From NCBI GenBank assembly GCA_963828735.1, contig CAWHFW010000005.1:256001-320000 (forward strand): a stretch of DNA of 64,000 nt, read 5' to 3'. This document shows positions 16,201 through 17,512 of the stretch, piece after piece (positions within the stretch are counted from its first letter, which is position 1; each line of letters opens with the position of its first letter). This DNA is from an uncultured Gemmatimonadales bacterium. Lineage in GTDB: Bacteria > Gemmatimonadota > Gemmatimonadetes > Gemmatimonadales > GWC2-71-9. The position numbers are program-made.

Positions 16201-17512
16201 TCCCCGGGCCGCAGCGCGGACAGTCGGCGTTGCCCTCGGGGAGCGGGGCGTGACAGGACGAGCAGACCAGCAGGGCCAGAACACCTCCGTTGGAACCCAG
16301 TGGAACCCACGGCCCTGTAAAGCTTAACGCATCCGTCGAGGGGGGGTGAGTGCAATTTTGGGGATGGGTGAAGCGGTGGTGGCTTCAGGCATATTATGCA
16401 GTCATTGTGGCCCAATTCTCGTCTACTGCGGTCAGGTTTGCACCTATGAACAGCATTTTGTGCAATGTGTGCACGATTCTCTTGACATGAAAAGTGCCGG
16501 TTCGTATACTCCGCTAGTCGAGATGCCGGACCCTGTACCCGGAGCCACGATGCGCCAGTCCTTCCGAAATCCGTCGCCGCGCCATCGCGAACCGCCCGGG
16601 CCCCCGTCCCGCTGCCCCGCAGCGTCCCCGATGCCCCTGCGTTCGCGATGCGACGCAGGGGCATCTCACTGAGATCCACCTCCACCACCAGCGCGAGACC
16701 GCCATGGCCACAACCGCACGCACGAGCACCGCGAAGCGCTCTCCCCAGACCAGTGAGGTCGGCAAGCTGCTCGACCTCATCCGGCAGCAGCACATCCAGG
16801 TCGTGGACGTCAAGTTCTGCGACCTGCCGGGCACCTGGCAGCACTTCTCCATTCCCGCCGCGACGCTCGACGAGGAGATGATCCGGGAGGGGCTGGGCTT
16901 CGACGGCTCCTCGATCCGTGGCTTTCAGGCGATCAACGAAAGCGACATGCTCCTCCTCCCCGACGTGTCCAGCGCGTTCGTAGACCCGGTGCTCGAGGTG
17001 CCGACGCTGTCGCTCACCTGCGACATCTACGACCCGCTCACGCTCGAGCCGTACTCGCGCGATCCGCGGTTCATCGCCTTCAAGGCCGAGGAGTACCTCC
17101 GCACCACCGGCATCGCCACCACGTCGTACTGGGGTCCCGAGGCGGAGTTCTTCATCTTCAACAGCGTGCGTTTCGACCAGAACGCCCATGAGGCCTTCTA
17201 TCATATCGACGCGGAAGAAGGCGTGTGGAACTCGGGCCGGAACGGGGGAAGCCCGAACCTCGGCCACCGGCCGCGCCACAAGGAGGGGTACTTCCCCGTC
17301 CCGCCGGTGGATCGACTGCAGGACGTGCGATCGAAGATCATGCTGGCGCTGATCCAGGCGGGCGTCCCGGTCGAGGTCCAGCATCACGAGGTGGCGACGG
17401 CGGGCCAGGCGGAGATCGACTTCAAGTTCGGCACCCTGGTGCAGACCGCCGACCGCCTGATGGCCTACAAGTACGTGGTGAAGAACGTCTGTCACAACCT
17501 GGGCTACACGGC

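Follow-up and report, generated by a model that had tools for sequence, protein, structure and literature searches.

A putative ribosome-dependent attenuator with asparagine and glutamine codons in the glnA leader of Gemmatimonadales

The 5′ leader of the glutamine synthetase gene glnA in an uncultured Gemmatimonadales bacterium combines a short reading frame with two competing RNA structures, an architecture that is very probably that of a ribosome-dependent attenuator. Given this architecture, asparagine and glutamine codons are the likely source of the regulatory signal. The complete model that we favour on balance is a trp-like attenuator in which these amide codons would report glutamine shortage and a Pro-Pro-Gly (PPG) pause, or a stop codon in its place, would park the ribosome. 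The evidence is comparative and computational: a frame that has the marks of translation, two mutually exclusive structures that both covary, the geometry of the ribosome relative to them, the placement of amide codons where the switch is decided, and the nitrogen genes that follow. The locus lies in a window of 64,000 nucleotides (contig CAWHFW010000005.1, positions 256,001 to 320,000), the whole stretch of DNA that was analysed, and its features are collected in Table 1.

Table 1. Coordinates of the glnA leader and its elements, counted from the first nucleotide of the window.
Feature	Position	Strand	Remarks
TGCA-N5-TGCA box, just 5′ of the -35 element	16461..16473	+	putative nitrogen-regulator operator, leader-independent
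Sigma-70-type promoter, TTGACA-17-TATACT	16482..16510	+	score 11/12; shuffles 0.1
Shine-Dalgarno-like GGAG of the leader ORF	16541..16544	+	
Leader peptide ORF, 40 aa	16550..16672	+	ATG 16550, TGA 16670-16672
Proposed control codons	16556..16570	+	Gln3 16556-16558; Arg-Asn CGA AAT 16565-16570
Antiterminator 5′ strand, codons H-R-E-P-P-G	16583..16601	+	10-bp core 16583-16592; fold, covariation
EPPGP codons	16589..16603	+	proposed site of ribosome parking or pausing on the antiterminator strand
Small hairpin P2 within the antiterminator loop	16610..16624	+	candidate RNA polymerase pause hairpin
Terminator-like hairpin (16630-16665) and weak tail	16630..16672	+	16633-16650 doubles as the antiterminator 3′ strand
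glnA, glutamine synthetase, 488 aa, proposed regulated gene	16704..18170	+	Pfam PF03951, PF00120

A transcription start is predicted near 16517, behind a promoter whose TTGACA/TATACT type is shared by 46 of the 47 loci read in the genus; a contig end cuts the remaining one. The TGCA box recurs with at least seven of eight matches in 40 of 45 genus glnA loci, leaderless loci included, and a 7/8 copy also lies 5′ of the genome's own amtB (L086, G000:C2 about 462230). The box is probably a nitrogen-regulator site, and we take its 13-bp T-N11-A spacing to be LysR-like. Known bacterial control of glnA, amtB and glnK involves the transcription factors NtrC, GlnR/TnrA, NtcA and AmtR, a glutamine riboswitch or antiterminator proteins. 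The leader ORF reads MRQSFRNPSPRHREPPGPP..., has an additional in-frame ATG at 16523, traverses the hairpin and ends at the hairpin tail. Contigs that span the leader come from four soil RNA libraries, and one of these contigs corresponds to 16530-16814; since contigs in three runs start 5′ of the predicted start site, DNA may be present, and the contigs thus inform neither on expression nor on termination. Beyond the gene, glnA and ilvD (PF00920) are separated by a long inverted repeat (18210-18262) that is rich in G+C, has no U-run and is probably a terminator or a processing hairpin.

An earlier note on this DNA had described the leader ORF and the hairpin, and both are borne out across the genus. 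A total of 47 of 55 glnA matches from 61 genus genomes were read, the eight excluded matches beginning inside the gene. ORF and hairpin occur together at 36 of the 47 loci, one locus has the hairpin only, nine are leaderless, the same promoter being followed by a short 5′ region, and one is a degraded second copy; the counts given in the earlier note (the leader with EPPGP at 7/12 loci, the hairpin at 9/12, no leader at 3/12) agree with this tally. The 36 complete loci together with one further genus locus make up the set of 37 that is used below. Genome G047 (L020) is part of all genus counts and of the alignment, L098 and L108, whose sequence duplicates that of G212 and G229, are part of counts over 50 or 51 loci, G074 (L066) is part of the tree and the family count, and G003, G126 and G184 enter search tallies only; these data are flagged as unpublished, and the conclusions do not depend on them. 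A quick protein tree, with five partial proteins left out, suggests an early origin of the leader within the genus, followed by several losses. The window's own glnA clade includes five leaderless loci and the hairpin-only locus L010. At four loci that lack the attenuator (L007, L008, L009 and L011), the 76-83-nt glnA leader has a short shared CCGGAGC...GAGCC motif, which may be left over from the attenuator or have taken its place. In this genome, no such leader was seen upstream of amtB or of the second glnA gene, and a second RN...EPAG match (C5:2635694, minus strand) lies antisense to a coding gene and was rejected as chance.

The reading frame was examined in a set of 50 leaders, to which the unbiased genus set contributed 36 and a pattern scan another 14. 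An in-frame ATG is open into the motif in 49/50, against 2/50 for each of the other two frames, and EPPGP occurs only 25 times in this genome when all six frames, with 9.56 million codon positions, are counted; the frame test and the rarity of the motif together argue that the ORF is not due to chance. The distance from the ATG to the Arg-Asn (R-N) pair varies from 9 to 60 nt, and in some relatives the ATG lies 6-7 nt past the -10 box, as a leaderless start, with the frame kept. In the eight loci of the window's type, the stop falls at one fixed codon (number 36-37 from R1, the Arg of R-N) in the hairpin tail, variously as TGA, TAG or TAA. Comparison of the leaders thus indicates that the ORF is under selection for translation.

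The earlier note had described the start of the peptide and EPPGP as kept in much of the genus. Start and motif are indeed shared, but less widely than another feature: an MRQ or MRH start is found in 18/50 leaders, EPPGP in 23/37 and PPG in 27/37, whereas the Asn of R-N, the most conserved peptide feature, is present in 35/37. Its codon varies between AAC and AAT, and Lys (AAA/AAG) is never seen there. At P11, G12 and P13 all four codons are used, with synonymous variation also at N2 and R3, which speaks for protein-level selection on PPG. The preceding R1 is CGA in 33/34 leaders, the codon tables including one mis-anchored row (L002); CGA accounts for 9.6% of the genome's Arg codons, and no tRNA-Arg(UCG) was found in this genome. 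At least one Asn or Gln precedes codon 7 in 50/50 leaders, and upstream of that codon Asn makes up 8.6% and Gln 7.5% of residues, compared with 1.8% and 3.2% in crude gene calls. Amide codons are nevertheless scarce in glnA leaders, six of the 50 having a single Asn or Gln only, while Arg makes up 20% of leader codons.

The RNA of the leader can adopt two structures. The terminator-like hairpin has 13 base pairs (arms 16630-16642 and 16653-16665; -31.5 kcal/mol, z -6.1), and in the alignment 99% of cells in its lower stem are paired, with two-sided changes in 3 of 11 pairs. The alternative is an antiterminator, in which the codons H-R-E (16583-16592) are the exact reverse complement of 16641-16650, the upper stem and loop of the hairpin, and in which the helix continues via the P-P-G codons into the hairpin 5′ arm. 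When the transcript is cut at 16650, the fold of 16575-16650 is this antiterminator (-35.2 kcal/mol, z -4.5), whose duplex, at -26.8 kcal/mol, is among the strongest. Across a MAFFT alignment of 37 sequences, 83.4% of the 332 cells of its nine-pair core are paired, as opposed to 13-41% in slid registers, and two-sided changes number 50 versus 22 in shuffles, controls that overstate the covariation because the kin are non-independent and the structure was derived from the same sequences. The real evidence of covariation lies in the clade-specific swaps between A-U, G-C and C-G in the same columns, and a compensatory change from A-U to G-C lies inside the window's own clade. Since both structures use 16633-16650, they are mutually exclusive, and both covary. 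The small hairpin P2, which was folded locus by locus because the alignment shifts it between clades, is stable here (z -3.9), but its sequence is clade-specific and it reaches p<0.05 in only 5/51 relatives. No conserved 1:2 helix was found in the leaders.

The earlier note had raised the lack of a U-run as an objection. This holds for the window, where the tail has three T, and for its clade, with two to four T in 8/8 members, but it does not hold for 34 of 42 relatives outside the clade, which have at least five T in the 10-nt tail. Moreover, gene-end hairpins in this genome, whose status as terminators is unverified, average 3.0 T over a background of 1.6 (262 of 3121 crude genes), so that a weak tail may be normal here. 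In relatives, 34-75 nt separate the end of the hairpin from the glnA ATG, so that the glnA ribosome-binding site stays uncovered; translational repression by the hairpin was rejected on this ground. Searches of Rfam gave no match at E<=10 in the window and none at E<=1 in 11 related loci, apart from miRNA-hairpin noise, and no curated riboswitch or T-box covariance model from Rfam fits the leader.

To relate the two structures to the position of a ribosome, the nascent RNA was folded in equilibrium models with a block of bases kept unpaired, using four assumed footprints. The antiterminator forms in 27/37 leaders with no ribosome and survives in 30-32/37, over the four footprints, with the A site on Asn. 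It is found in only 1-12/37 with the A site on codon 6 and in 0/37 with the A site on the Gly of PPG, and it re-forms in 18-21/37 when the A site reaches codon 17. As EPPGP lies on the antiterminator strand, a ribosome there is expected to favour termination. The folding geometry therefore predicts that a ribosome waiting at R-N would leave glnA on and that one on EPPGP would turn it off; an untranslated leader is likewise predicted to be on, given that no 1:2 helix was found. Occupancy of EPPGP as an off state would reverse the simplest reading of the stall proposed in the earlier note. The broader part of that proposal, control of glnA through a switch operated by the ribosome, has good support, but EPPGP as an EF-P-type sensing stall does not: no antiterminator survives a ribosome at PPG, PPG is absent from 10/37 genus leaders and from 15/15 leaders of a second lineage described below, and the invariance expected of an arrest motif across homologs is not found.

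From this arrangement we infer termination at the hairpin, a response to glutamine shortage, amide-tRNA supply as the signal and PPG as a parking site. By default, the codons H-R-E-P-P-G would pair with the hairpin 5′ arm and loop, and the resulting antiterminator would permit readthrough into glnA. With plentiful glutamine, the ribosome would clear the Gln and Asn codons and dwell on PPG, or in relatives on a stop codon there; covering the antiterminator strand, it would let the terminator form and switch glnA off. With glutamine short, Gln-tRNA made through GatCAB and Asn-tRNA charged with AsnB-derived asparagine would run low, the ribosome would wait on the amide codon just 5′ of the strand, and the antiterminator would survive, leaving glnA on. 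Against the model, the ORF traverses the hairpin in the window's clade, so that rapid translation could itself keep the terminator from forming there.

That PPG probably acts as the parking pause is suggested by its relation to the stop codon. PPG is kept in 10/10 leaders with a far-downstream stop and lost in 11/41 with a close one, an association that is suggestive only, as two of the ten far-stop leaders come from a pattern that requires PPG; in L006, a stop codon stands where PPG would be. The gene for EF-P (efp) is present in the genome above the cut-off, and the available part of a study of proline stalling reports that Gly after Pro-Pro promotes it (PMC4176338).

The gene content of the genome is consistent with amide codons as reporters of glutamine. 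In the assembly, which is 97.5% complete, gatB, asnS and two asnB genes score above the cut-off, and glnS and asnA were not found. Two gatB-like sequences are present (G000:C2:87214-88629 and C2:40718-42119), the second of which is split over two frames. Without GlnRS, the formation of Gln-tRNA needs glutamine as the amide donor at GatCAB, and the synthesis of asparagine by AsnB needs glutamine as well. Both GatCAB and AsnB being glutamine-dependent, Gln and Asn codons would both report glutamine, although the dependence through Asn is indirect. In E. coli limited for nitrogen, both Gln codons are sites of ribosome stalling, according to the accessible portion of a preprint (bioRxiv 10.1101/224204). 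The CGA codon that precedes Asn may slow the ribosome further, yet a CGA without a matching tRNA-Arg(UCG) also supports a response to arginine, which is weighed below.

Searches beyond the genus recovered the same geometry before other nitrogen genes. In 185,579 species genomes, an exact pattern gave 42 matches, 35 of them directly 5′ of glnA and two at contig ends; the remaining five lie within unrelated genes and were rejected as chance. A covariance model, run on 151 family and 151 phylum genomes, found diverged copies 5′ of amtB, namely L133 and L138 in genus g32, the latter at an amtB-glnA operon, and L168 in genus g82, which belongs to family f2; a diverged copy 5′ of glnA in genus g74 (L057) was recognised by eye; most of the weak matches to the model (E>1e-4) were set aside as ordinary gene-end hairpins or in-gene noise. 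In genus g82, whose family is a different one within Gemmatimonadales, 9 of 41 genomes together carry 15 copies, located upstream of amtB (seven), P-II genes (four), genes for BBP2 porins (two) and contig ends (two). The g82 leaders, such as MRSALRISPSNSGNNRPLPQNLWDAIERFG* in L168, contain two to five Asn codons and an invariant Gln, end at a stop on the antiterminator strand in 14/15 and are followed by long U-runs, about 9/10 T in examples. They share almost nothing with the glnA-type peptides but the position of the amide codon and an I-E dictated by the RNA. In L168, antiterminator pairing drops from 16 to 1 directly past Gln-Asn.

A pattern blind to the peptide, consisting of the RNA core alone, led to 124 loci (at least 120 metagenome matches and 4 of 15 genome matches). 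Among the matches listed, 115 are distinct loci, and the full hairpin is present in 70 of them. Six codons before the core, the residue is Gln at 40 of the 69 listed hairpin-bearing loci with enough upstream sequence, Asn at 26 and another at 3; as these loci fall into two main lineages, an Asn glnA-type and a Gln g82-type, the 66/69 amount to two observations of one geometry. Among the listed loci without a hairpin, which served as a control, Asn or Gln stands there in 3/43. PPG is found in 22/69 of the hairpin-bearing loci. Of the 61 downstream ORFs, 40 were scanned, and these encode glutamine synthetase (12), Amt (11), BBP2 porin (9) and P-II (6), with no match for two, all among the matches listed. 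The leader is far from universal: among other glnA loci read in the family, 26 of 28 showed no sign of it, and neither did five f2 glnA loci or 46 of 50 amt loci read.

Related scaffolds accompany further genes. At L134, L136, L144, L179 and, in this genome, L174 (G000:C5:1755060-1755152, minus strand), the scaffold and a leader ORF lie 5′ of a secreted HExxH protein with a weak Peptidase_M48 match; the L134 leader has five Asn codons and that of L174 none. In family f2, attenuator-like leaders with a GTG start precede amt (L232 in G303, which has the same scaffold and no Asn, and L233 in G381), and another (L211 in G386) precedes an mgsA-like gene, so labelled by eye, together with amt. At L138/L180 (G091), where the operon is amtB-glnA, the leader ORF lacks a stop codon and shares the reading frame of amtB. 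Cys-containing leaders on the same scaffold (L137 with CC, L135, and L152 with CCC), of which L135 and L137 lie 5′ of a protein labelled by eye as thioesterase-like, are candidate cysteine attenuators. A different conserved element occupies the glnA 5′ leader in other genera of the family (L048, L054, L055, L056, L059 and L060); it has the core GCTGGGGC in 6/6 and GATGCTGGCTGGGGCG in 5/6, followed by a U-run in two, gave no Rfam match in the five loci that were scanned, and is a candidate for a separate cis-regulatory RNA. In the sister-clade glnA loci L061-L075, a start codon lies about 6 nt past the -10 box in most, and a GAGAGCCC...GGGCTCTC hairpin often follows; their reading frames are not conserved.

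Several other explanations have to be weighed against the amide-codon model. The same attenuator might sense its signal by ligand-dependent arrest of the nascent peptide, as in TnaC or SpeFL or tuned by EF-P, so that a high level of a metabolite such as glutamine would stall RNR...EPPGP at PPG and turn glnA off, absence of arrest leaving it on. The fixed spacing of R-N to EPPGP in most genus leaders, the conservation of the second C of the Pro codons despite its being bulged in the RNA helix, and the effect of a Gly after Pro-Pro with efp present would all fit such an arrest, and the through-running ORF of this clade and the re-formed antiterminator at codon 17 agree with passage as the on state. 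We nonetheless regard arrest as unlikely, for PPG is missing from more than a quarter of genus leaders and from most of the listed peptide-blind loci, a stop replaces it in L006, and the g82 peptides are nearly unrelated to the glnA type. A further possibility is that the attenuator reads not amides but general elongation speed or the supply of arginine, through the rare CGA and the R-N-R-R run. The near-invariant CGA without a cognate tRNA, the arginine-rich leader and the related leaders without Asn (L174, L232) point in this direction, and a default-on design requires merely a slow ribosome. Set against these are the alternation of Gln and Asn at one position between the two lineages, the Asn runs of g82, in which R-N-R is absent in 14/15, and the Cys runs (L137, L152) before other genes on the same scaffold, which suggest that specific codons are swappable; we therefore give this explanation only a small chance.

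The remaining explanations concern the RNA itself. In the window's clade, which holds several leader losses, decay is a live rival: the element could be weakened, with the hairpin confined to a role in pausing, Rho-assisted termination or mRNA stability, and control of glnA would then rest mainly with the promoter box. The weak tail in every clade member, the five leaderless loci and L010 in the same clade, the presence of rho in the genome and the retention of the TGCA box with or without the leader are compatible with this. It is improbable, however, considering the strength of the antiterminator and its compensatory change in this very clade, the stop position maintained through three different stop codons, and the equally modest tails of gene-end hairpins throughout the genome. 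Alternatively, the ORF could be incidental to a riboswitch or to a terminator-antiterminator bound by an ANTAR/NasR-like protein. The nearly constant CGA would allow CGAAAY to be an RNA motif, and protein antitermination of nitrogen genes is known from GnfR and NasR (PMC2995071, in its available part). A search for ANTAR proteins gave no match in the genome, but control genomes likewise gave none. The frame test, the synonymous variation, the varied stops at a fixed site and the lack of an Rfam match leave this explanation very little probability. The amide-codon attenuator thus remains the reading that we prefer.

This attenuator has a classical precedent in E. coli trpL, in which a 1:2 or pause hairpin synchronises RNA polymerase and the ribosome. 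As in trpL and ilvB1, a leader ORF is combined with an exclusive terminator and antiterminator, and the control codons lie just 5′ of the antiterminator strand. The proposed input, however, is Asn and Gln codons, and the targets are glnA, amtB, P-II and porin genes. The glnA version further differs in having one to five amide codons, where most classical attenuators have tandem runs of control codons, a Pro-Pro-Gly pause, and no 1:2 helix that could be found. The glnA RNA motif is a glutamine riboswitch and thus also exerts control of nitrogen genes at the RNA level; the leader described here is likewise linked to glutamine, but it has no Rfam match and would need translation. The closest parallel for the off state is the ilvB1 uORF of M. 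tuberculosis, where, according to the available part of the source, a ribosome is parked on the antiterminator strand by a stop codon, as in g82 (PMC13236596); by analogy, PPG would do the job of that stop codon. MgtL of mgtA is likewise a proline-containing leader with acidic residues that controls downstream readthrough, but in the accessible portion of that work pausing leads to readthrough and termination is by Rho (PMC12856214), whereas the proline pause here, at residues that can be dispensed with, is predicted to lead to termination. TnaC and SpeFL also couple a leader peptide to attenuation of an operon of amino-acid or nitrogen metabolism, although, as far as the available excerpts on them describe, they need a fixed nascent peptide and a free ligand, and here only the position of the amide codon is common to the lineages. 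Premature termination in nitrogen-gene leaders is further known from GnfR and NasR, where the effector is a protein antiterminator rather than, as proposed here, the ribosome, and where glnB is no GnfR target according to the same partial source (PMC2995071). The available section of a paper on Actinobacteria reports no attenuators of these genes in that group (PMC1262725), and published full text, a body that leaves most subscription papers outside, yielded no such attenuator for glnA, amtB or Gemmatimonadota. Within the literature searched, no trp-operon-style control of nitrogen-assimilation genes was found described; the attenuator principle itself is classical.

Taken more widely, the occurrences would be explained if a Gemmatimonadales nitrogen regulon (glutamine synthetase, Amt, P-II, porin and perhaps the secreted peptidase) were placed under one mobile glutamine-sensing attenuator, with PPG able to replace the stop as the parking site and the RNA scaffold reused, with Cys codons, before other genes, a tentative proposal to which we assign slightly less than an even chance. 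If the model is true, it would represent a new route of nitrogen sensing, in which transamidation-dependent tRNA charging serves as a regulatory signal. The element, at about 160 nt, would be a compact candidate nitrogen sensor, and its relatives would form a programmable family of attenuators in a dominant and barely studied soil phylum.
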